Positions 13,849 through 50,692 of a DNA stretch of 64,000 nucleotides are shown piece by piece. Both the position numbers and the translations under genes were made by a program. The first letter of the stretch is position 1, and the number at the start of each line of letters is the position of its first letter. The notes under the pieces were generated by a model. The model searched no databases. It saw only the letters and a program-made list of their open reading frames with translations, and was not told the DNA's origin. This DNA is from a virus (lineage: Duplodnaviria; Caudoviricetes), in the IMG/VR virus record IMGVR_UViG_3300042402_003952. The stretch is one strand, 5' to 3'.

Positions 13849-14343
13849 ATGTATTACTGCTATGCTTATTTGCGTGAAGATGGAACTCCATATTATATTG
13901 GAAAAGGAAGAGGGCAAAGAGCCTATTTAAAACATCCTCGCGCAAATGGATTAGATTTGCGTCCGAAAGATAAAAATAGAATAGTTATTCTTAAAGAATT
14001 TGAAGATGAGATTTCTGCTTATCAGTATGAAATGGAAATGATAGAAAAATATGGACGCAAATGTGATGGAACTGGCATATTGAGAAATATGACTATTGGT
14101 GGTGAAGGAAATAAGTCTATTTTTAAAACTTATGAGCAAAGAAAACAAGCAGAAATTGAAAGAAAACGTAAATGGTATTATGATAATCAGGAACGTTTAA
14201 GGCAAAAAGCAGCAAAAATACTTGATGAAAACCGTGATGAAATTAATCGCAAACGCAGGGAACGACGCAACACAGAACCATATCGTTCAGAATATCTTGC
14301 TCGGCAACGTGAGAGGAGAAATAAGAAAAGTGGTTCCATTTGA
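13849..14343 (+). CDS. free-standing GIY-YIG homing endonuclease
   Basis: YCY...YIGKG...R and conserved E/N (AYQYE, LRNMTIGGEG). Confidence 0.88.
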   Translation: MYYCYAYLREDGTPYYIGKGRGQRAYLKHPRANGLDLRPKDKNRIVILKEFEDEISAYQYEMEMIEKYGRKCDGTGILRNMTIGGEGNKSIFKTYEQRKQAEIERKRKWYYDNQERLRQKAAKILDENRDEINRKRRERRNTEPYRSEYLARQRERRNKKSGSI

Positions 14344-14926
14344 TTCTTATAAAACTTATCTGTCCTTGAAGAATCATTTCACCAAGGACAGTTATGATTA
14401 TTTCAAATATTGTGGAAAGAGCCGCGCAACACTCCAATCTTTCTACAAACGTAAAGACAGGATGTGGTTCGAAAAAGTCTCCAGACAAAAGACAGATCAA
14501 GAGGTTATAGATTTTTTTGTTTCTAACTTCGTATCTTGTAATGATCCAGAGACTCTTTGGATTGGTGAAATGATCAAAGAAGGAGAAGCAAGATATCAAA
14601 ACTGGCAAAAGAAAATTCAATCACTTTCCTATATCTTCAAAGAAGAATCACAAAGTCTCTTTGAAGAAAATAAATTTGAGGATGTCTTTAAGTGTTCTAA
14701 AGGACATCCTATTCTTCTTAAAAAATTCCTGAATGGTAAAATTAGCTTAGAAACACTAGTCATCTACGATAGAATTTTCCTGTTCGGGAATAAGTTTGAT
14801 AAGAAACTTCAAGACCCGGTGTGGCAAACCGTCAGTCGTAGGATTAAAAAATATAATCCTTTTCTAAATATTGATGTATTTCGTTTTCGTAAAATCTTGA
14901 AAGAGATTGTTCTGGAGGATTCATGA
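14330..14926 (+). CDS. gp59: helicase loader
   Basis: PFDSYKTYLSLKNHFT..SYDYFKY.GK signature; GTG start at 14330 within track ORF 14222..14926. Confidence 0.9.
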   Translation: MVPFDSYKTYLSLKNHFTKDSYDYFKYCGKSRATLQSFYKRKDRMWFEKVSRQKTDQEVIDFFVSNFVSCNDPETLWIGEMIKEGEARYQNWQKKIQSLSYIFKEESQSLFEENKFEDVFKCSKGHPILLKKFLNGKISLETLVIYDRIFLFGNKFDKKLQDPVWQTVSRRIKKYNPFLNIDVFRFRKILKEIVLEDS

Positions 14927-19299: not shown

Positions 19300-20154
19300 A
19301 TGCCTTCGCCATCACCAAGACCTAGAACAGTATCTGAGTTAAAGTCATCTATATTAAATCCCGCATTAACTTCTCACTTTGAGTGCTCTTTTAATCCGCC
19401 GCAACCTGTAAGAGATTGGGTTAATTTGCATAGAAACAATGCGGGACTTGGAAATGGTTATGGATTTGAAATTAGTGGATCGTCTGCAGAGTTCTTTAAC
19501 CTATCTTGTTCCGATGCATCATTACCTGGTTCTTCATTAGCAACTCATGAAATTAATAATGACTTCACCGGAGTAACTGAAAGGCACGTATACAGAAGAC
19601 AGTATGATGATAGAGCAGACTTTACTTTCTATGTTGATCATGATTATAATATAATTTTCTTTTTTGAGAATTGGATGTCTTACATTGTAAACGAACAGTA
19701 TACTAATGTTGCGACTGGAGTTCCAAATGCAGGAATAGAATTGCCTAATTTTAATTACAGAGTTAATTTTCCTGGATTAGGAGATGGTGATGGATATAAA
19801 ACAACAATATATCTTAAAAAATTTGAGAGAGACTACACCGGAAGAGTATTGCAGTATAGATTTTTGAATGCATATCCAATTAGTATTAATTCAATGCCAG
19901 TTTCTTATGATTCATCTCAATTACTAAAATGCACTGTCTCCTTTAATTATTCAAGATATATTGTTGGTGGTGGTGATATTCTTGTTCCACCAAAACAAGA
20001 GCAAACTCCAACACAACAAGCTGAACAGCAAGCAGTACAACAAGCACCTGCTTCTTCTCCAGGAAATCCAGTAGTTCCTGATGAATTAGTTGAGTATGGA
20101 GTATGGCCTAGACCGTTGACAAATTATGCTGGGCAACGTCTATTTCCAGACTAA
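19300..20154 (+). CDS. tail-tube-fold protein (gp19/gp54-like tube initiator)
   Basis: C..ASLPG, FTFYVD, FFENW, NAYP.SI...VSY, TVSFNY motifs. Confidence 0.75.
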   Translation: MPSPSPRPRTVSELKSSILNPALTSHFECSFNPPQPVRDWVNLHRNNAGLGNGYGFEISGSSAEFFNLSCSDASLPGSSLATHEINNDFTGVTERHVYRRQYDDRADFTFYVDHDYNIIFFFENWMSYIVNEQYTNVATGVPNAGIELPNFNYRVNFPGLGDGDGYKTTIYLKKFERDYTGRVLQYRFLNAYPISINSMPVSYDSSQLLKCTVSFNYSRYIVGGGDILVPPKQEQTPTQQAEQQAVQQAPASSPGNPVVPDELVEYGVWPRPLTNYAGQRLFPD

Positions 20155-20184: not shown

Positions 20185-20904
20185 ATGCCTTTACCAAAGA
20201 TCTCTACGCCAACACATGAGTTGGAACTACCTTCTACTGGGCAAACGATTCAGTATCGCCCTTTTCTTGTGCGAGAAGAAAAACTTCTTGTATTAGCACT
20301 TGAAAGTGAGAATACCAAAGAAATTACAACAGCAATTAAGAACGTTATTAAGAATTGTATTCAAACAAAAGGAGTAAAGGTAGAATCGCTACCTACTTTT
20401 GATATTGAGTATCTTTTCCTTAATATTCGCGGTAAATCTGTTGGAGAAGAGATTGAAGTTAATATTGTTTGTCCAGATGATGGAGAAACTTATGTTCCAG
20501 TGAAGATTGATATTGATGAAATTAAAGTGCAAAAAAATGAAGAGCATACAACTAAAATTCAAGTAGATCAATCTATCGTGATGGAAATGAAGTATCCGTC
20601 ATTGGATCAATTCATTAAAAATAACTTTGATTTTAATGAAAACAATTCAATGGATCAGTCATTTGATCTAGTTGCTTCTTGTGTAGACAAGATTTATAAT
20701 GAAGAAGAAGTCTGGTCTGCTGCTGATGTAACAAAGAAAGAACTGATTGAGTTTTTGGATCAAATGAACTCATCTCAATTCAAACAGATTGAAAAGTTCT
20801 TTGAAACAATGCCAAAACTTTCTCATACTGTTAAAGTCAAGAATCCAAATACTGAAGTTGAAAGTGAAGTTGTGTTGGAGGGTTTGTCCAGTTTTTTCGC
20901 ATAG
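20185..20904 (+). CDS. gp26: baseplate hub assembly protein
   Basis: MPLPKI.TP..EL.LPS, YRPFLV.EEK.L, FDIEYLFL.IR.KSVGE motifs. Confidence 0.9.
   Translation: MPLPKISTPTHELELPSTGQTIQYRPFLVREEKLLVLALESENTKEITTAIKNVIKNCIQTKGVKVESLPTFDIEYLFLNIRGKSVGEEIEVNIVCPDDGETYVPVKIDIDEIKVQKNEEHTTKIQVDQSIVMEMKYPSLDQFIKNNFDFNENNSMDQSFDLVASCVDKIYNEEEVWSAADVTKKELIEFLDQMNSSQFKQIEKFFETMPKLSHTVKVKNPNTEVESEVVLEGLSSFFA
20892..20898 (+). other. candidate -1 ribosomal frameshift site T TTT TTC
   Basis: X XXY YYZ heptamer two codons before the gp26 stop; the -1 frame is open to 21077. Confidence 0.55.
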
Positions 20905-20921
20905 GACTTTGTTATATAGAT

Positions 20922-21077
20922 TTGGAAAATTATTACAAACTTAATTTTTCATTGATGCAATACCATAAATGGAGTTTATGGGAAATTGAAGGACTGATGC
21001 CTTGGGAAAGAGATGTTTATGTTTCTTTATTAAAAAATTACTTGGAAGAAGAAAAAGCAAAACAACAGCAACAATAG
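20922..21077 (+). CDS. gp51: gp51-like baseplate hub assembly protein (LENYYKLNFSLMQYHKWSLWEIEGLMPWERDVY...)
   Basis: Not in track. Recognisable motif; no ATG at the usual MDLEN position (ATA GAT TTG); reachable by frameshift, TTG 20922 or ATG 20955. Confidence 0.75.
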   Translation: MENYYKLNFSLMQYHKWSLWEIEGLMPWERDVYVSLLKNYLEEEKAKQQQQ

Positions 21078-21092
21078 TAATAATAATTTAAA

Positions 21093-21752
21093 TTAATTAA
21101 TTTGAATTCTATTTGCAGGATCAATTCCTCTTTTTTTCTGGTATCTTGTTAATGGTCCCGCAGTGCTTATGAAATTACTTATGGTGCATTTATATTTTTT
21201 GCTATTTGTTATATTTGCACCTTTTATTCCGTCTTCTCTCATTTGTTCTTTTGTTCTATCAAAATATCCAATTTTTAGATCTTTTACTTTATAACCACCA
21301 CTTCTTCCATCTAATATTTTTTGGTTTTTATTTCTAGCAAAAATTCCTTTTTTTAATTTTTTTACTTTTTCTCCGGATTTTTTTCTTGCTTTTTGTTTTT
21401 CTTCTTCAGTTATTCCGTATATTCCTTTTTTTAAATTTAGACTATTAAATCCATTCTTTCTTTTTGTATCTAGTGAAAAATTTCCACCGCATCCTTCATT
21501 CAAACACCAAGGATCATTAAGAACTGGTTTTATCAATCTATCCTCTACCTTTCTACATTTTTCATAACCCTCATCAGAGTAATCAAATATCTCTAATATC
21601 TGTTTCTTTGGAGTATAAAGTTCCCAACCCCATTTGTTTGTTTTAGGTGAACCCCAGTACTCTTGATTATAATATTTTTCTTTTTTACTTCCATAGTAAT
21701 AATACGGAACTTCTTCAAAGGTAATCTTATACGTATAGATACATGGTTTCAT
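21093..21752 (-). CDS. free-standing GIY-YIG (Seg-like) homing endonuclease
   Basis: IYTYKI...YYYGS, YWGS, E..LI...LN motifs; repeated KKGI(F/Y) C-terminal modules. Confidence 0.85.
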   Translation of the reverse strand: MKPCIYTYKITFEEVPYYYYGSKKEKYYNQEYWGSPKTNKWGWELYTPKKQILEIFDYSDEGYEKCRKVEDRLIKPVLNDPWCLNEGCGGNFSLDTKRKNGFNSLNLKKGIYGITEEEKQKARKKSGEKVKKLKKGIFARNKNQKILDGRSGGYKVKDLKIGYFDRTKEQMREDGIKGANITNSKKYKCTISNFISTAGPLTRYQKKRGIDPANRIQIN

Positions 21753-21861: not shown

Positions 21862-21909
21862 AATTATCTAGAAGAAGAAAAAGAAAAGCAGCAACAAAAT
21901 GGGACCTGA
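21862..21909 (+). pseudogene. orphaned original 3' end of gp51 (NYLEEEKEKQQQNGT*)
   Basis: Duplicate of NYLEEEKAKQQQQ at 21036-21074; overlaps the ATG of the next gene. Confidence 0.7.
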
Positions 21910-23980
21910 CGAACTAGACGATCTACTGGCAAGTATTAGAGCGGAATCTAAAAGAGAATCCGCTTCAACTTTGTATGAAGGAACTGCAGAAGAGGATCTT
22001 GTAAACGAAGAAGTAGATGAAAGAGTTTTAACTTTACTTGGTCTTAATGAAGTTTTTGATATTGATTATGGAACTTATATCTCTCTTTTAAAAGAAAAAT
22101 TAGTTGCGTCTAGAAATTTTGATAAAAAACTTTCCACTGAAGAAGATGAGTTATTAGTTGGAGAGTTTAAAAGAGTAAAAGGAAAAGTAGGTAAATTCAA
22201 ATTAAAAAGAAAGAAAGTTACTTCGGATAATATTGGAGTAACTGGTCCTATTCGTGTATCATCAGACAAGTTTTTATTGACTGGAAAGGCAATAGTTCCA
22301 GAAACTGCTCCAGCAGAAACTTCTAGTGACATCGTAGATATTCAGAAAGCATTAGATAATATTCTAAAAAATCTTTCACTCCAAAATAAAGAAAAGAAAA
22401 AGGCGAGTGAAGATGAGAGAAAGAAGAGTGAAGATAGAAGAAGAAAAAAAAGAGAAGGTGATTTAGAAAAACCGCTTACACAACTAAAGGCACTTGCAAA
22501 GAAAATCATTGCACCCGCTCAAGGTATTCTTGATCGTATTTTCAGGTTTATTAAATTCACTTTACTTGGTTATGCTTTTAATCAGTTAATAAAATGGTTT
22601 AATGATCCTAAAAATGCTGACAAAATAAAAGTACTTGGTAGGTTTTTAAAGGATTGGTGGCCTTCATTACTTTCTGCTTATGTATTATTTGCAACTCCAT
22701 TTGGTAAGTTCATACGTGGAACTCTTAAAATGTTAAGAGGATTTATTCCTCAAATTGCAAGATTCATTGCGGCAAATCCAGTTTTGGTAGCAACTGCGGC
22801 AGCAGGAGTAGGTGCTTATGTAATATCTCAAAAAAATGAGTCATATAGAGAGGAACTTAAAAAAACCCAACCGTCTATTGTCACTCCAAAGGAAACTAAA
22901 GAAACTGGAAAGACGCCTGGAGTTCCTCAACTACAGCAAGAACAAGTGTTCCAAAGAGGATTGGGTGGAGCATTTAAAGGTGGAGGTATTGTTCCTAGAA
23001 TTAGAAAGTCTTTCTTTGGTGGTGGTTTAATCCAAAGAGAAATAGATGCAAGAGATATTGCATTTGAAGGTGGTGGTGGAATTAGTGATGATACAGGTGT
23101 AAGAATTAAAGGTGCAGGTGTTGATACGCAACTGATTGCTGCAAGACCTGGTGAAGTCGTAATGTCAAAAGAAGCAGTTGACAAATATGGTGCAAACTTC
23201 TTCTTGGATCTAAACAAAAAAGGTGGTGGAACTGGTGTTCCAAGAATGGTAAACAATATTCAACTTGCTGCTGGAGGTGGATTAATTAAGAGAACAATTA
23301 AGTCCTATCAAGGTGGTGGAATGATTGGTTCTCTTGGTAGAGTTCTTCCTGGAACAGGAAGTGTTATGGCACCTAGAGGTATGAATCTTGGATATCAAAA
23401 TAAGTTTTTAGGAATGAATGTTGGTGGAGTAAAAAATCTACCACTCAATCAAACATATTCCCCAGATGCGGTCAAGAGATATAATGCAAATTCAAGTGCT
23501 CCAAGTTCTTTAGTTAAATTTGGAACTGGACCCCTTGCAGAAAGATCTGTAAGTATTCCAAAATCATCTTCATCTAAAAACTCTTTTGCAATACCACCAA
23601 GTAGTGTTTCTAGACCACCAATGTCAAAACCACCGACTGGTCTTAATTTGAATCTGAAGCAAAATATTCAAACCATTCGTGATGCTTCAAACAGACAAGA
23701 AAAGATGATGAGAGAACTTGGTGTTGAACCTGATGGATATGTAAATCTCCGTGGACAACCTCTTAATCTTGGTCCACAAAGTCGCTCTATGGCACCTCCA
23801 GGACCTCCTGTAATCTATACAAAGACAACTTATACAGTTCTTCCACCAATTAAAGCACCAACTAAGACGCCTGCAATTGCAAGAGGTTCTAAAATTCCAG
23901 AATTTTCAGTTTCAAGTGTCAATGATACACGCTCAAAAAATGCTTCAATTTTAGGAATTGCTGATCTTATAGGAGCATAA
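21899..23980 (+). CDS. tape-measure-like tail protein A
   Basis: Charged coil, TM-like segments, PGEVV..KEAV.KYG motif; position after gp26/gp51. Confidence 0.7.
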   Translation: MGPDELDDLLASIRAESKRESASTLYEGTAEEDLVNEEVDERVLTLLGLNEVFDIDYGTYISLLKEKLVASRNFDKKLSTEEDELLVGEFKRVKGKVGKFKLKRKKVTSDNIGVTGPIRVSSDKFLLTGKAIVPETAPAETSSDIVDIQKALDNILKNLSLQNKEKKKASEDERKKSEDRRRKKREGDLEKPLTQLKALAKKIIAPAQGILDRIFRFIKFTLLGYAFNQLIKWFNDPKNADKIKVLGRFLKDWWPSLLSAYVLFATPFGKFIRGTLKMLRGFIPQIARFIAANPVLVATAAAGVGAYVISQKNESYREELKKTQPSIVTPKETKETGKTPGVPQLQQEQVFQRGLGGAFKGGGIVPRIRKSFFGGGLIQREIDARDIAFEGGGGISDDTGVRIKGAGVDTQLIAARPGEVVMSKEAVDKYGANFFLDLNKKGGGTGVPRMVNNIQLAAGGGLIKRTIKSYQGGGMIGSLGRVLPGTGSVMAPRGMNLGYQNKFLGMNVGGVKNLPLNQTYSPDAVKRYNANSSAPSSLVKFGTGPLAERSVSIPKSSSSKNSFAIPPSSVSRPPMSKPPTGLNLNLKQNIQTIRDASNRQEKMMRELGVEPDGYVNLRGQPLNLGPQSRSMAPPGPPVIYTKTTYTVLPPIKAPTKTPAIARGSKIPEFSVSSVNDTRSKNASILGIADLIGA

Positions 23981-23984
23981 TAAG

Positions 23985-26900
23985 ATGGCAACGATAGATT
24001 CTAGAAAACTATTACCATCAAGCACTAAAGGTAGTGCGATTGATAAACCAAAGTTTCTTGTTCCTATTAAAAATATTTCCACTAAAAAAATTAGTGGATC
24101 TGATTTAAAACCAATTGATAAAAAAACAGAAACTTCTGGATCTCTTGTTGTTTTAAAGAAAAAGATTATCAAACTTGATAGTCTAATTCAAAATAATCTA
24201 CTGATAGACCAAAAAGAAAGAACAAGAAAAAGAAAAGAAGAGGAAAGATCAAAGGTAGAAAAAAGAGAAGCAGATCTTGAAAAAGGAGTAAAGAAAAATA
24301 ATGTAAGAATAAATTTAATTTCATCTATTCCTGGACAAAGTATTCTTGATAAAATTAATCGTTTTATTGGATTTACTTTACTTGGTTATTTGTTCAACAA
24401 GTATGGAGAACTTCTTCCAAAACTTATGGAGTTTGGAAAGGTTCTAAAACCAGTTGCAGAGTTTGTTGAAAGTTTTGCTAAAAATCTTCTTAAAGGTGTA
24501 ATTGATTTTGTTGAATTTGGTTATAAGGCATACGATAAGACAAGAGATTTTGTTAAACAGATAGGCGGAGAAGGAGCACAAAAAACATTTGATGAGTTTT
24601 CAAAGCAGTTAAATCTTCTTTTGAATGGAGCTATAGCAGCTTCAATGTTGATTGCAAGTAGTAAACCCAAACCTACATCTACTGGTAGTGGTTCTTTCGG
24701 TGCAGGATACGCTTCAGGATATGCTGCTGGACTTTCTGCTAGTCGTGGAGGTAGACCTGGAGCTGGATTTAGAGATCCATCAAGATATCGTTCTCCTGGA
24801 CAAGCAAGATCTGGCGGATTTGATCTGGAACAAACTAGAAGAATAAACACTCAAGCAAATAGTGCAGCACCAACTGGCCCAAAAGGACCTTTAGATAGGA
24901 TTAGTCGTGGTATTAGAGGAGCGGGAGCACAACTTGAAACTGGAACTTTATTTAAAAGAGGTGCAGGACTTCAAAAATCTTTATATAATGCTCCAGGAAA
25001 AATAAAAAGTATATCATCAAAACTTGGTGGATTTGGTGGAAAGATATTTGGCAGAATTCCAATTATTGGTGGATTAATTAATTTTGCAATTAGTCTTGCT
25101 TTAGGTGAAGATCCCGGAAGAGCAGCGGCTAAAGCGGTTGGTTCTACTGCTGGCGCTGCCTTGGGGACATTTATTCCTGTTCCTGGTGTTGGAACTATTC
25201 TTGGTGGTATTCTTGGTGATATTGCCGGTGGAGCATTATATGATACTCTAATTGGCAATAAACAAAAACCACAAGGTCGGGCAGAAGGTGGACAAGTAAC
25301 TAGAGGCGGTCAATCGACAGTAGCACCTTCAAGAAGGATAAAAAAACCGGTAAGAAAAGCACCACCAAGAATTCAACCACAAAAAACACAACCAGGAAAA
25401 GATGTTGGTGGCAAATTAAAGATTGAAGAACTTTATGGTAAGGACGAACCAGGAAAGAGAAGTGCATTAAGAGCACTCCGAAAGAGTTCTGATGATGTTA
25501 AGAGGATGAAATCCATTAACGGACTTGCTGGTTCAATGTTTGGTGCTGGTATTGATATGGCACTTGGACAAAAGCCAGATAAAAATCTTTCAAAAAATCT
25601 TGGAAATATTTTTGGATCTGTGATTGCTTCTGCAGTTGATATGGAACTTAATAACTCTCTTGGTGATATTTCTAAAACTATTGCGATGGCAAATGGTGGC
25701 GTAGTTCCTTCACGAGAGATTGGAAAGAGTTTGAGTATTGGTGAAAGAATAGGTAGTTTTATTTCAAGAGCACTTGCAGTTTCTATTGAGAGTTCCGCTT
25801 CAAAGATACTTCAGAATTTACGTAATGAAATGAATTTGGAAGGTGGTGCTCCTGGCACAACACCTTCCGACGGTGGACCTGGTGGTGGCGGTGGAGAAAT
25901 TCCAGGCGATGCTCCACCAGAAGTTAAGGCAATGCTTGAAGCAATTTCTGCTGGGGAAGGAAGTTGGGATTCTGTAAATCCATCAACAACAGTACCTGGA
26001 TTAAGTAATATGACAATTGCTGATGCTCGTAAGGCTGCAATAGCAAAAGGTGTGGATCAACTTGGCGGATCTGGTGCGATGGGTAAGTGGCAGCAAATGC
26101 CGGCATTTATTCTTGAAAGAGCAAGAGATGTGGGGTTAGATCCAAATAAAGATAAATTTAATCCAGAAAATCAAACCAAAATTGCTAGAATGTTGATGGC
26201 ATCCGTTTATCCCGGAGGAGAATCACAATTAGTTAAAGATGCTCAGAGAGATCCAATGTCTGCTGCAGCAAAGTTGAGAGGAACATGGCCTTCTTTGCCT
26301 GGAGGAAGTCAAGCAAATACTAAAGAGAAGAAATTTAGAGAAAATTTTGCAAAAGCTTTGCAATCATACAAGTCTCCAAGTGCAGTTCTAACAAAAGGTT
26401 CTTTTGCATCAGTTCTTCCAAGAGGAAATCCACAATTTACTAGTGGTTTTGGTTCTAGATGGGGAAGAAACCATCAAGGTATTGATATTGGTGTTGATGC
26501 AAATTCTCCAGTTACTGCTCTACAGGATGGAAAGGTAGTTGCAATTTATAAAAACTTTGGAGGACATGGAGTAGGAATTGTTGTTCAGCATTCTGATGGA
26601 ACTAAAATCGTTTATGGACACGTAAATGCAAATGTAAGAGAGGGAGATACAGTTAAAAAGGGACAAACAATAGCAACAGTTAAAGGTTGGTTTAACGCAT
26701 ATGGAAATAAAGATAATACGCACTTGCACCTAGAAAGATATGTTGGTGGAGCTGCTACAGATCCAACAGGATATTTAAATTCACTATCTAAATCACAACC
26801 AGATACTCGTCCAGCATCCTCACCACCTTCTCAGGTTAGAACTAAATTAACTAGAAGTAATCAGTGGGACCCTTCTAAGTCTGGACTTAAGTTTAATGAA

Positions 26901-27053
26901 AAAACTGGAATGTATGAAAAAGCATCACTTGCACCATCACAATCCTCATCAGTTGCCTCTTTAAATAAATCTGGCATTTTAAAGGAGGATACATCCACAA
27001 TGATTTACAATAATAATGCAGTTGCTATTCTTCCAATTGAAGTTACTGCGTAA
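23985..27053 (+). CDS. tape-measure-like tail protein B with lysozyme-like and M23 peptidase domains
   Basis: LEAIS.GEG...A.GKWQ muramidase-like segment; H.GIDIG...YGHV...HLHLE M23 motifs. Confidence 0.8.
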   Translation: MATIDSRKLLPSSTKGSAIDKPKFLVPIKNISTKKISGSDLKPIDKKTETSGSLVVLKKKIIKLDSLIQNNLLIDQKERTRKRKEEERSKVEKREADLEKGVKKNNVRINLISSIPGQSILDKINRFIGFTLLGYLFNKYGELLPKLMEFGKVLKPVAEFVESFAKNLLKGVIDFVEFGYKAYDKTRDFVKQIGGEGAQKTFDEFSKQLNLLLNGAIAASMLIASSKPKPTSTGSGSFGAGYASGYAAGLSASRGGRPGAGFRDPSRYRSPGQARSGGFDLEQTRRINTQANSAAPTGPKGPLDRISRGIRGAGAQLETGTLFKRGAGLQKSLYNAPGKIKSISSKLGGFGGKIFGRIPIIGGLINFAISLALGEDPGRAAAKAVGSTAGAALGTFIPVPGVGTILGGILGDIAGGALYDTLIGNKQKPQGRAEGGQVTRGGQSTVAPSRRIKKPVRKAPPRIQPQKTQPGKDVGGKLKIEELYGKDEPGKRSALRALRKSSDDVKRMKSINGLAGSMFGAGIDMALGQKPDKNLSKNLGNIFGSVIASAVDMELNNSLGDISKTIAMANGGVVPSREIGKSLSIGERIGSFISRALAVSIESSASKILQNLRNEMNLEGGAPGTTPSDGGPGGGGGEIPGDAPPEVKAMLEAISAGEGSWDSVNPSTTVPGLSNMTIADARKAAIAKGVDQLGGSGAMGKWQQMPAFILERARDVGLDPNKDKFNPENQTKIARMLMASVYPGGESQLVKDAQRDPMSAAAKLRGTWPSLPGGSQANTKEKKFRENFAKALQSYKSPSAVLTKGSFASVLPRGNPQFTSGFGSRWGRNHQGIDIGVDANSPVTALQDGKVVAIYKNFGGHGVGIVVQHSDGTKIVYGHVNANVREGDTVKKGQTIATVKGWFNAYGNKDNTHLHLERYVGGAATDPTGYLNSLSKSQPDTRPASSPPSQVRTKLTRSNQWDPSKSGLKFNEKTGMYEKASLAPSQSSSVASLNKSGILKEDTSTMIYNNNAVAILPIEVTA

Positions 27054-47569: not shown

Positions 47570-50500
47570 ATGAGTCCACTATTAGGTGCTTTAGGAGATT
47601 CCTCTGAATATGCTTATAGAGGAACTTTAGATGATATACCTACTGATTTTTCACTCACAAATGTAACTGGAGCAGAACCTGGAGTTGCTTATACTACAGG
47701 CCCAGTTACAATTAATGGAATCAATAATACAGTTAGAGTATCTGTAGGCACTGGAGCATCTATTGCAGTTAATAGTGGAATTTTTACAAGTGGTCCTGGA
47801 TTTATAAGAAATGGTCAAACAGTTGCTGTTCGTATTCCAACTACATCAGGATCTGATAATGATTTTGGAAAAACCTACAGTGCAACCTTAACTGTTGGAA
47901 GAACTTCAAAACAGTGGAGTGTTACGACGAGAACAAAAGATTCTACGCCTGATGCATTTACTTTCACTAATTCAACTAATCAGAATTTAGGAATTACATC
48001 AACAAGTAATACGATTACAATTTCTGGATTAGATGCAACAATTCCTTCAAATGCTGCAATTACTTCTGGTATTGGATCTTTCCGTAAAAATGGAGGAGCA
48101 CCAGGAACTGCAACAACAATAGGAAATGGAGATACGCTTGCGATTGTATTAGCAGGTCCAACCGATTATTCCAAAACAAATTCTACTTCTATCACTGTTG
48201 GTGATTATACAACATCATATTCAATTTCTACAAGAGACTCTGATACTACTGTAAATCAATTTACATTTACTAATTTTACCAATGTTGGATTATCATCTGC
48301 ATTTGACAGTAATTCAATTACTTTGAGTGGTGCAGATACTGATACTGCAGCAGCACCTGTTCCATTAACTGCAACAGTATCTGGTGGATTTTTAAAAGTT
48401 GTAAGAGGTTCAACCACAGTCAGAGACTTTAGTGCATCTTCTGCAACGGTTTATAATGGCGATATTCTTACTTTAAGAGTTAATTCTTCTCCAAGTTATA
48501 GCACTTCAACATCGGCATCATTATCAATCACAGGAGCAAATACTCCAGTTGGTGTTGCAAGCACATTCACTGTCACAACAAGACCAATTGTAAGCGATAC
48601 AATTCCAACACAATTCACTTTTGTTGACAAGAGTGGTCAAGGAAGAAACATTGCAACAATTAGTGATCCTATTACGATTGTTGGAATGACAACACACGCT
48701 GATGATTTTGGAACTGCTTTCATTACAACTACAACAGACGGTGGAGAATTTAGAGTTACTCGTGGAGGATCTGTTGTTAGAGGATTTGGTACAGAATCAT
48801 ATCAAATTAGAAATAATGACATTATTAATTTAAGGATTACGACATCTCCTGCATCAAATGGATCAGTTCAAACTAGATTCAATGTAACAGGAAGTGATAA
48901 TACTGATATTAATAACATTATCAATCAAACAATTAGTGACACTTGGGTTGTTCAAAGTGCAGTTCGTAATTGTCCTTTAGTTGCTCCTACTTTTACATCA
49001 ATTACTGGAGTAAATCCATCATCTTTACAATCAGTAACCTTCATACCTACAAGTTATGATAGTGACTGTGGAGTTGTTGTCAATACCTCAAATGCAAACT
49101 CATATCTAGATGTTAATGGTACAACTGGAAATAATATAGTAGTTCTTCCTGGTGTTGCCTGTACTGTTTATATGACAGCAGGTTCATTCTCTCAAACAAG
49201 ATCAACGACAGTTACTCTCACTGCAAACAATAATCTTCCATCACCAACTTCAACATCATCATCTTGGTCCGTATCTACAAGATCATCAAATGATCCAACT
49301 GTCACTTTAACTGCAAGTCCATCATCAGTTTCTTGTAATCAAAACACAACTTTAACTTGGTCTACGACTTCTGCAGTAAGTGTAACAACAAATGGGTTTA
49401 CTGGAGTTGGAACTAATGGATCTTTGACTGTTGGACCATTAAAAGCAAATACTAGTTACTCAATTACTGCAACTGGACCTGATGGAACAACTGCAACTTC
49501 TTCCTCTTCAGTTGTAGTCAGTACAACTGCAGCAGCAACTTTAACAGCAAATTCTACAAGTATTGCGTATAATGGAAGTGTAACATTAAGTTGGTCAACA
49601 TCAAATGCAAGTAGTGTTGTTTCAAACTTTGGAGCAACTGCAACATCAGGATCTATCACTTTAAATAATTTAAAATCTAGTCAGACTTATACACTTCGTG
49701 CAATATCTAATGGTGGATGTGCAGATTCACCAACTCAAACTGTAACTATTAATGTTGCTGCTTGTAGTGAAATTAGAGATGTTGATACTGGATATAGTGG
49801 AATTACATTAAATTATACTTATGCAAATCCAGGAAATGGTTTTGATTATTATTTTTCGGGTTTAAGTGGTGATGGAACAGCAAGAGCAGCACAAAGTTAT
49901 GGTGATAGTGAATTTTGGTCTGGTTTTAGTCCTACTAGCCCTTGTACTTGTGGATGGACTGATCCGTGTCTGAATGGATCTAGTGGACCTAATAGTGATT
50001 TTTTTGTTATTCCTGCTGGAGTCACTTTCGTCACTATAATTGCAGCAGGTTCTGGAGGTGGAGGAGGTGGAGGAGGTCCAGCTCTTCCGGGTGGTAGTGG
50101 AGGAGGAGGAGCATATGTAATATTAGGTGTTTCTGTAAGTCCCGGTCAAAGATTTACTTGGAGTTTTGGTGGAGGTGGACAAGGTTCATATCCAAATGGT
50201 TCAGGAAACACTCCAAATAATGGTGGTGGTGGATGCTTTGCTGGTCCTGGATGGCCAACAAGAGTTTATAATAATAATGGAAGACAAATAATAGCTGCTG
50301 GCGGTGGAGGTGGTGGCGGAAGAAATATAAATGGACAACCTGGATCTGGAAGTGTTGATCCAGGAGGATCAGTATCTACTGGTGGTGCTGGTAATGGTGG
50401 GCGAGGTGGTGAGTTATCCTCTGCCGGAAGTGCCGGTGGTGCTGGATATGTTTCAATGTCTTTTACTGTAAATATTGAAGGTGCTTCTTGGAGTACCTTG

Positions 50501-50692
50501 ATTACTGGTATTAACCAACAGTATAGATCATCGTTTAATCGTCCACCATCTGTAAGTGAAATGGATTATTGGATTAACGAATATTTAAGTTATAATGCAG
50601 ATACTGTTGAACAATTGAAAGGATGGATTGCTGGAGGAAGTGCTTATAGATCATCCACTGGTGCAGTTACTTATTGTGGATCTACCTTATAA
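47570..50692 (+). CDS. Thr/Ser-rich structural protein with Ig-like repeats and a glycine-rich domain
   Basis: Repeated D..P..F.F modules; GGGGGG...GGGG glycine-rich region. Confidence 0.7.
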   Translation: MSPLLGALGDSSEYAYRGTLDDIPTDFSLTNVTGAEPGVAYTTGPVTINGINNTVRVSVGTGASIAVNSGIFTSGPGFIRNGQTVAVRIPTTSGSDNDFGKTYSATLTVGRTSKQWSVTTRTKDSTPDAFTFTNSTNQNLGITSTSNTITISGLDATIPSNAAITSGIGSFRKNGGAPGTATTIGNGDTLAIVLAGPTDYSKTNSTSITVGDYTTSYSISTRDSDTTVNQFTFTNFTNVGLSSAFDSNSITLSGADTDTAAAPVPLTATVSGGFLKVVRGSTTVRDFSASSATVYNGDILTLRVNSSPSYSTSTSASLSITGANTPVGVASTFTVTTRPIVSDTIPTQFTFVDKSGQGRNIATISDPITIVGMTTHADDFGTAFITTTTDGGEFRVTRGGSVVRGFGTESYQIRNNDIINLRITTSPASNGSVQTRFNVTGSDNTDINNIINQTISDTWVVQSAVRNCPLVAPTFTSITGVNPSSLQSVTFIPTSYDSDCGVVVNTSNANSYLDVNGTTGNNIVVLPGVACTVYMTAGSFSQTRSTTVTLTANNNLPSPTSTSSSWSVSTRSSNDPTVTLTASPSSVSCNQNTTLTWSTTSAVSVTTNGFTGVGTNGSLTVGPLKANTSYSITATGPDGTTATSSSSVVVSTTAAATLTANSTSIAYNGSVTLSWSTSNASSVVSNFGATATSGSITLNNLKSSQTYTLRAISNGGCADSPTQTVTINVAACSEIRDVDTGYSGITLNYTYANPGNGFDYYFSGLSGDGTARAAQSYGDSEFWSGFSPTSPCTCGWTDPCLNGSSGPNSDFFVIPAGVTFVTIIAAGSGGGGGGGGPALPGGSGGGGAYVILGVSVSPGQRFTWSFGGGGQGSYPNGSGNTPNNGGGGCFAGPGWPTRVYNNNGRQIIAAGGGGGGGRNINGQPGSGSVDPGGSVSTGGAGNGGRGGELSSAGSAGGAGYVSMSFTVNIEGASWSTLITGINQQYRSSFNRPPSVSEMDYWINEYLSYNADTVEQLKGWIAGGSAYRSSTGAVTYCGSTL

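Follow-up and report, generated by a model that had tools for sequence, protein, structure and literature searches.

Few recoding events in tailed phages are as conserved as frameshifting in the tail assembly chaperone gene. One example is E/E+E' of the contractile-tailed phage P2, where a −1 frameshift takes place at a T TTT TTG slip site in the gene preceding the tape-measure gene. A further point of reference is the −1 frameshift of Escherichia coli dnaX, which involves a Shine-Dalgarno (SD)-like element ~10 nt upstream and a strong downstream hairpin, and in which the frameshift product is the shorter one. For phage lambda, Xu, Hendrix and Duda are said to have described in 2004 the gpG/gpGT pair as a conserved −1 frameshift of the tail assembly chaperone genes.

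In phage T4, gp26 (208 aa) and gp51 (249 aa) are considered hub assembly chaperones, with gp51 needed for assembly and absent from the particle (Leiman et al. 2010, PMC3004832). The roles of both proteins have so far remained vague, with terms such as 'hub assembly chaperone' and 'catalyst' in use. T4 genes 26 and 51 are separate and divergently transcribed. No report of a gp26/gp51 frameshift in T4, the model myovirus, or in T4-like phages was found in the full-text literature, subscription papers not being covered. While frameshifting of tail assembly chaperone genes is well known as such, the PF12322/Gp51_C protein family, the T4-like lineage and the duplication in T4 are the new elements here. 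We describe a T4-like cyanophage locus in which a −1 ribosomal frameshift probably joins gp26 to a gp51 part, an assignment made by sequence comparison in the absence of protein, ribosome-profiling or reporter data for these phages.

The window (the whole 64,000-nucleotide stretch of viral DNA that was analysed) contains a tail-hub module of a T4-like cyanophage, and the public sequencing runs that contain this DNA are freshwater and lake metagenomes. Features lie on the plus strand unless stated otherwise. A tube-fold gene (19300-20154, 284 aa; phrog_45 tail tube, 1.4e-40; PF23849 Phage_TTP_2, 6.2e-12) is located directly 5' of gp26, and occupies the position of the tail tube or tube initiator gene. 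The gp26-like ORF (20185-20904) encodes the short, zero-frame product of 239 aa and 27.4 kDa, with residues 9-239 matching PF12322 T4_baseplate (1.9e-77) and a further match to phrog_150 (3.8e-82). The −1 frame extension (20898-21077) consists of 59 codons plus stop and corresponds to the gp51 C-terminal domain (phrog_634 baseplate hub assembly catalyst, 1.7e-26); it is also aligned by a profile of T4-type gp51, and the equivalent products of relatives belong to Pfam Gp51_C (PF28602). The whole recoded gene would thus span 20185-21077, its predicted trans-frame long product being the putative equivalent of T4 gp51. The gene at 21899-23980 (693 aa) is referred to as tape-measure-like, an identity that derives mainly from its position, in addition to a weak match to phrog_37649 tape measure (0.0072) and one to phrog_35029 (2.1e-45).

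The order tube-fold gene, gp26, gp51, tape measure put forward in the original prediction therefore stands, with the omission of an antisense gene (21093-21752, minus strand, 219 aa) that separates the gp51 part from the tape-measure-like gene. This putative homing endonuclease gene was taken from the ORF list, and has no match in Pfam or PHROG. It is not present at the matching place in L005, the closest relative, where gp51 ends ...QQQQNGT followed by its stop, over the next ATG. In the window, an orphan copy of the gp51 3' end (NYLEEEKEKQQQNGT followed by a stop; 15 codons, 21862-21909), recognised by comparing its translation with L005, overlaps the ATG of the next gene. Given that the intact gp51 end of L005 overlaps the next gene's ATG directly, insertion of the antisense gene resembles the result of homing-endonuclease activity accompanied by duplication of the target. 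The N-terminus of the antisense gene product is GIY...YIG-like.

The 3' end of gp26 reads AGT TTT TTC GCA TAG, with the gp51-like frame at −1 relative to gp26. The slippery heptamer T TTT TTC (20892-20898) is in the X XXY YYZ register and sits two codons from the end of the gene, the zero-frame stop TAG (20902-20904) being placed one codon 3' of the heptamer. The same stop spacing is observed in 141/143 relatives. The −1 frame is open from just 5' of the gp26 end, reads FFRIGLCYIDLENYYKLNF... and terminates at 21075-21077. Many relatives have the Met of MDLEN at the position occupied by ATA (20916-20918) in the window, and the earliest possible starts in the −1 frame are TTG 20922 (yielding 51 aa) and ATG 20955 (yielding 40 aa). 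The predicted slip product contains 238 + 59 = 297 aa (34.7 kDa), compared to 239 aa (27.4 kDa) for the unshifted protein. Each of these elements, i.e. the T TTT TTC at the gp26 end with its −1 continuation into gp51-like sequence, the ATA in place of the MDLEN Met and a potential fusion of ~297 aa next to a 239-aa protein, had been proposed from inspection of the letters alone, and each is encoded in the sequence as proposed.

The number of heptamers in the window is by itself not beyond chance, with 33 occurrences of TTTTTTC against 38.8 expected; the placement of the gp26 heptamer and its conservation are. Of the 79 TTTTTTY heptamers in the window, no more than 4 fall within a long ORF on its sense strand, 3 of them in the slippery register. 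Other than at the gp26 end, in-register sense-strand TTTTTTY is found only at 14512 (ORF 14222-14926) and 49999 (ORF 47570-50692), in both cases far from stops. Apart from these, there is strong avoidance of T runs on the sense strand in the window.

To assess conservation, loci were gathered comprising 80 near the window gp26, 80 near the gp26 of S-RSM4 and a GenBank phage set. In all 177 loci having both gp26 and gp51 parts, TTTTTT(C/T) is found in register and the gp51 part lies in the −1 frame; 143 non-identical loci among these relatives were used for detailed counts. Conservation of TTTTTT(C/T) and of the open −1 frame had been suggested as a check on the proposal, which it passes, also in T4-like phages that infect other hosts. 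Sequencing errors often occur in homopolymer runs, and the frame relation could in principle reflect a sequencing or assembly indel in the T run, or a gene broken in one phage. Since the arrangement recurs in 177/177 loci from many samples as well as isolate genomes, and independent metagenome contigs from other studies span the site without insertion or deletion in the T run, an artefact or decay is effectively refuted, with a negligible chance of being correct.

Conservation extends to codon choice. The run is preceded by AGT, AAT, TCT, GAT or GGT, a codon whose third base is T in 143/143 non-identical loci while the residue is S, N, D or G. The second heptamer codon is TTT in 143/143, and the third is TTC in 139 and TTT in 4. 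There is no silent variation in the three codons of the heptamer across the 143 loci, whereas adjoining codons use all four third bases. Judged by these nucleotide comparisons, the slip site and the frame relation are conserved beyond what the protein sequence requires.

The same observations can be considered in terms of transcriptional slippage, with RNA polymerase adding one U in the U6 run. This leads to the same 297-aa fusion (S-F-F-R...), and as the protein is identical, all conservation arguments fit equally well and slippage is not excluded. The longer runs seen in some relatives (T8 in Melnitz, T7 in phiM7) are in its favour. Known bacterial transcriptional slippage sites mostly need at least 9 A/T. 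The run in our set is exactly 6 T in 139/143 loci, with a final C retained instead of a seventh T, and the X XXY YYZ register that is always maintained is not needed by a slipping polymerase. The DNA contigs are furthermore without length heterogeneity, an argument that is silent on the RNA. We consider transcriptional slippage unlikely, and ribosomal frameshifting remains the preferred reading.

Many relatives lack a plausible start for the extension. No ATG is found in the first 12 codons past the site in 67/143 loci, and in 33/143 none of ATG, GTG and TTG occurs ahead of codon 18. Variation in those 67 loci over codons 3-18 of the extension, located 3' of the gp26 stop, was found to be 7.5, 5.1 and 16.7 at −1-frame codon positions 1, 2 and 3. 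This pattern is a coding signature, and the stretch is hence read as translated. Ahead of the gp26 stop, 136/143 loci retain the post-slip Arg codon, with G, A or V as the zero-frame residue at that point. In 10/143 loci a −1-frame stop is present directly 5' of the heptamer, making a slip earlier than the heptamer impossible there. Wherever public annotations include gp51, they give it a gene of its own; in the isolates S-PRM1, S-MbCM100 and DSL-LC03 the gp51 part is not annotated at all, probably due to the absence of a start codon.

These data bear directly on the possibility that no fusion is made, the gp51 part being a separate small protein initiated at TTG 20922 or ATG 20955, perhaps through re-initiation, and the T run being kept only for the Phe-Phe end of gp26. 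It is in keeping with the public annotations, with the TTG 20922 available in the window, and with the early ATG (within 9 codons of the site) present in 76/143 relatives, where gp51 is annotated as a separate gene and independent initiation is possible. The Phe-Phe dipeptide is moreover kept in T4 gp26. However, a need for Phe-Phe cannot explain the frozen T that precedes it, nor the use of TTT TTC over TTC TTT; where T4-type gp26 keeps the dipeptide, it is encoded as TTC TTT following GAG or GAA, without a run. Independent initiation of gp51 with no fusion product had been named as an outcome that would overturn the original prediction, and it fails for the 67 loci without ATG within 12 codons, in which the −1-frame codons from the site to the first possible start are nevertheless conserved as coding. 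The Arg codon retained while the zero-frame residue varies also argues against it, as does L013, an IMG/VR locus that lacks any ATG, GTG or TTG ahead of codon 18 and any ATG ahead of codon 33. A separate small protein without any fusion is in our view very unlikely.

The gp26 family comprises 4672 representative clusters at E <= 0.001, and 94 of 118 full-length top matches have FF plus 0-3 residues at the C-terminus. Methylophilales phage Melnitz has T TTT TTT TAA (within a T8 run), and the same site is found in Sinorhizobium phiM7 (T7 run), Pseudomonas Milchi, Stenotrophomonas YB07, Aeromonas Aswh_1 and the KVP40-like PVA23. A marine contig has T TTT TTA, and the gp26 end of Rhizobium RHph_I9 contains T TTT TTG, exactly the P2 sequence. 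The use of a T-run slip is the likeness to P2 E/E+E'; in contrast, no sequence relationship to the P2 proteins was detected, and P2 E is small and without the PF12322 body.

Exceptions were also observed. No canonical heptamer is present in Vibrio K469, Vibrio YC or the P0089 contig, where the −1 ORF starts at an ATG overlapping the stop, as would be expected if gp51 were made without fusion. The existence of such lineages means that the −1 relation alone fits simple coupling and does not constitute proof of a slip. The free-standing C-domain may be functional in some lineages. Two further loci, L199 (Salmonella phage Mooltan; Ackermannviridae) and L197 (from another lineage), contain a start-less gp51_C-like −1 ORF with non-canonical runs, GAA ATT TTC ATT TAA and CCC TTT TTA TC, which are possible non-standard slip sites.

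A comparison to T4 provides a further view of the predicted fusion. PF12322 matches both T4 gp26 (8.8e-64) and residues 1-201 of T4 gp51 (3.9e-52), while the C-terminus of T4 gp51 matches phrog_634. By these profile matches, T4 gp51 is a gp26 paralogue with the same C-terminal domain as the window extension, so that the predicted fusion has the architecture of a known protein. When 92 trans-frame fusions are combined into a profile, residues 123-246 of T4 gp51 align across the junction without gap, a colinearity that also counts against gp51 as a separate small protein. Conversely, a profile of 13 T4-type gp51 sequences covers residues 24-284 of the window fusion in one domain at 34.9 bits, compared to 16.7 bits for the gp26 part and 10.0 bits for the extension when the pieces are kept separate.

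The window short form is akin to T4 gp26 and the trans-frame long form to T4 gp51, but T4 has two paralogous genes and its gene 26 does not end in a slippery site, where the window and its relatives have one gene and an inferred frameshift. Each of nine complete heptamer genomes contains one PF12322 gene compared to two in T4. Separate genes for short and long forms, as in T4, were hence not found in these nine related genomes, and only 64 kb of the window phage itself is visible. A heptamer at the gp26 end was detected in 0/11 T4-type loci. The heptamer being confined to one-gene phages and absent from the T4 type, the run is kept exactly where the long form is not separately encoded.

We sought structural similarity for the gp26 body using an AlphaFold2 model of the short form (pLDDT 94.6). 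Foldseek of this model against the PDB gave no match at E <= 0.001. For gp26 residues 1-90, an exhaustive structural aligner placed three small proteins at the top, 3fgx (Z 7.8), 2ob9 (Z 7.7) and 3klu (Z 7.5), well ahead of the next match at Z 4.7; Z values of 7-8 are within the background range of the tool for unmatched models. The match to 2ob9, the HK97 tail assembly chaperone, covers 83 residues with an rmsd of 3.4, and 3klu is YqbN, which we take to be XkdN-like and from a PBSX-type prophage. The apparent resemblance of the first ~90 residues of modelled gp26 to the HK97 tail assembly chaperone is only suggestive, because a Z of ~7.7 lies inside that background.

The model-based match of residues 1-90, combined with the position before the tape-measure-like gene, suggests a chaperone pair of the G/GT type by analogy, in the absence of binding data for the tape-measure or tube proteins. 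A chaperone pair is also in line with the literature on T4, which regards gp26 and gp51 as hub chaperones and records that gp51 is missing from virions. The layout resembles lambda G/GT in having two overlapping ORFs between the tube and tape-measure genes, a heptamer near the end of the first ORF, a second ORF in the −1 frame that is often start-less, and a short product accompanied by a C-terminally extended one; the putative HK97-like N-terminal domain is a further likeness, subject to the background noted above. The two systems differ in protein family (PF12322 plus Gp51_C in the window), in the size of the short form, which is ~2x that of gpG with extra domains past residue ~90, and in the heptamer, U UUU UUC in the window compared to G GGA AAG in lambda. 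Binding to the tape-measure and tube proteins has furthermore not been shown for the window proteins, and both partner binding and the chaperone role itself are inferred.

In the proposed mechanism, most ribosomes would read AGU UUU UUC GCA UAG to yield the 239-aa gp26-type protein. Some ribosomes would slip by −1 with tRNA-Phe on UUU in the P site and on UUC in the A site, both re-pairing on UUU. Such a tandem tRNA-Phe slip, from UUU UUC to U UUU UU, is the most likely mechanism. Following the slip, translation would continue as CGC AUA GGA... for 59 further codons, leading to a 297-aa protein with a gp26-family body and a Gp51_C domain. The short form would be abundant and the long form rare, and the two may act in hub and tape-measure assembly in a manner similar to lambda G/GT. 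The signal, its register and conservation, the coding-type conservation downstream in the absence of a start and the colinearity with T4 gp51 are direct observations; the occurrence of the slip and its efficiency are inferred, no product having been observed.

The absence of an obvious stimulatory hairpin, anticipated from the sequence, is borne out in the window, where folds of the downstream region are not better than those of shuffles (z −0.28 and −0.55); an SD-like element is nevertheless present upstream. RNAalifold applied to 25 diverse relatives gave no pairs conserved across clades. In the S-RSM4-like clade a weak stem of 5 bp is the only prediction, unsupported by compensatory changes or covariation. 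Across the 143 loci, the 45 nt 3' of the site folded more stably than mononucleotide shuffles, at −10.3 kcal/mol compared to −4.5 kcal/mol. As these structural features are limited to particular clades and are not shared by the window, a downstream stimulator is not claimed. A palindrome, GTCCAYATGGAC, with the perfect form GGTCCATATGGACC (codons V-H-M-D), is located 10 nt 3' of the heptamer in 35/143 relatives (L005-L084), the window not being one of them. The palindrome could form a stimulatory hairpin specific to that clade, or could simply result from the codons used.

The upstream element of the window, read from the sequence, is GGAGGG at 20877-20882, 9 nt 5' of the heptamer. A purine-rich element occurs 7-10 nt 5' of the heptamer in 98/143 relatives, with 2 having it at another position and 43 lacking it. 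GGAGGG is a possible dnaX-type stimulator. Its absence in 43/143 relatives indicates that it is not essential, and it may be a by-product of Glu-Gly codons. The combination of a heptamer with an upstream SD-like element is reminiscent of dnaX, but the window is without a hairpin, the upstream element is not conserved in relatives, and the predicted frameshift product is longer rather than shorter. Dual stimulation as in dnaX, by an upstream SD-like element and a downstream hairpin, is therefore not supported in either the window or its relatives.

On balance we lean, without strong conviction, towards a general scheme in which T4-like phages obey the G/GT rule, with gp26 and gp51 as short and long tape-measure chaperones. 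Most lineages (cyanophages, KVP40-like, Aeromonas 65-like, rhizobial and others) would produce the long form by −1 frameshift, while the T4 lineage would have swapped the frameshift for gene duplication. If true, the T4 gene pair is a natural case of duplication taking the place of a frameshift, and a role as chaperones of the T4 tape-measure protein becomes a testable proposal for gp26 and gp51. A chaperone function would explain the 'catalytic' action of gp51 and its absence from virions. It would also follow that hundreds of public cyanomyovirus genomes have gene 51 either wrongly annotated or not annotated at all, and that the true long product is a fusion of roughly 300 aa. The site itself offers a clean, hairpin-less U UUU UUC for studies of frameshifting in cyanobacteria.

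Two minor observations concern the surroundings of the site. Comparison of L013 with the window reveals 98% identity over the gp51 part (20898-21074) and only 86% over gp26, which suggests, on the basis of these identities, a recombination boundary near the slip site. Further downstream, the consecutive genes 21899-23980 (693 aa) and 23985-27053 (1022 aa) have a common N-terminal motif, ..RFI.FTLLGY.., and the product of the latter contains a C-terminal M23 peptidase domain (PF01551, 3.7e-19). The products of these two genes may be paralogous tape-measure/hub proteins.
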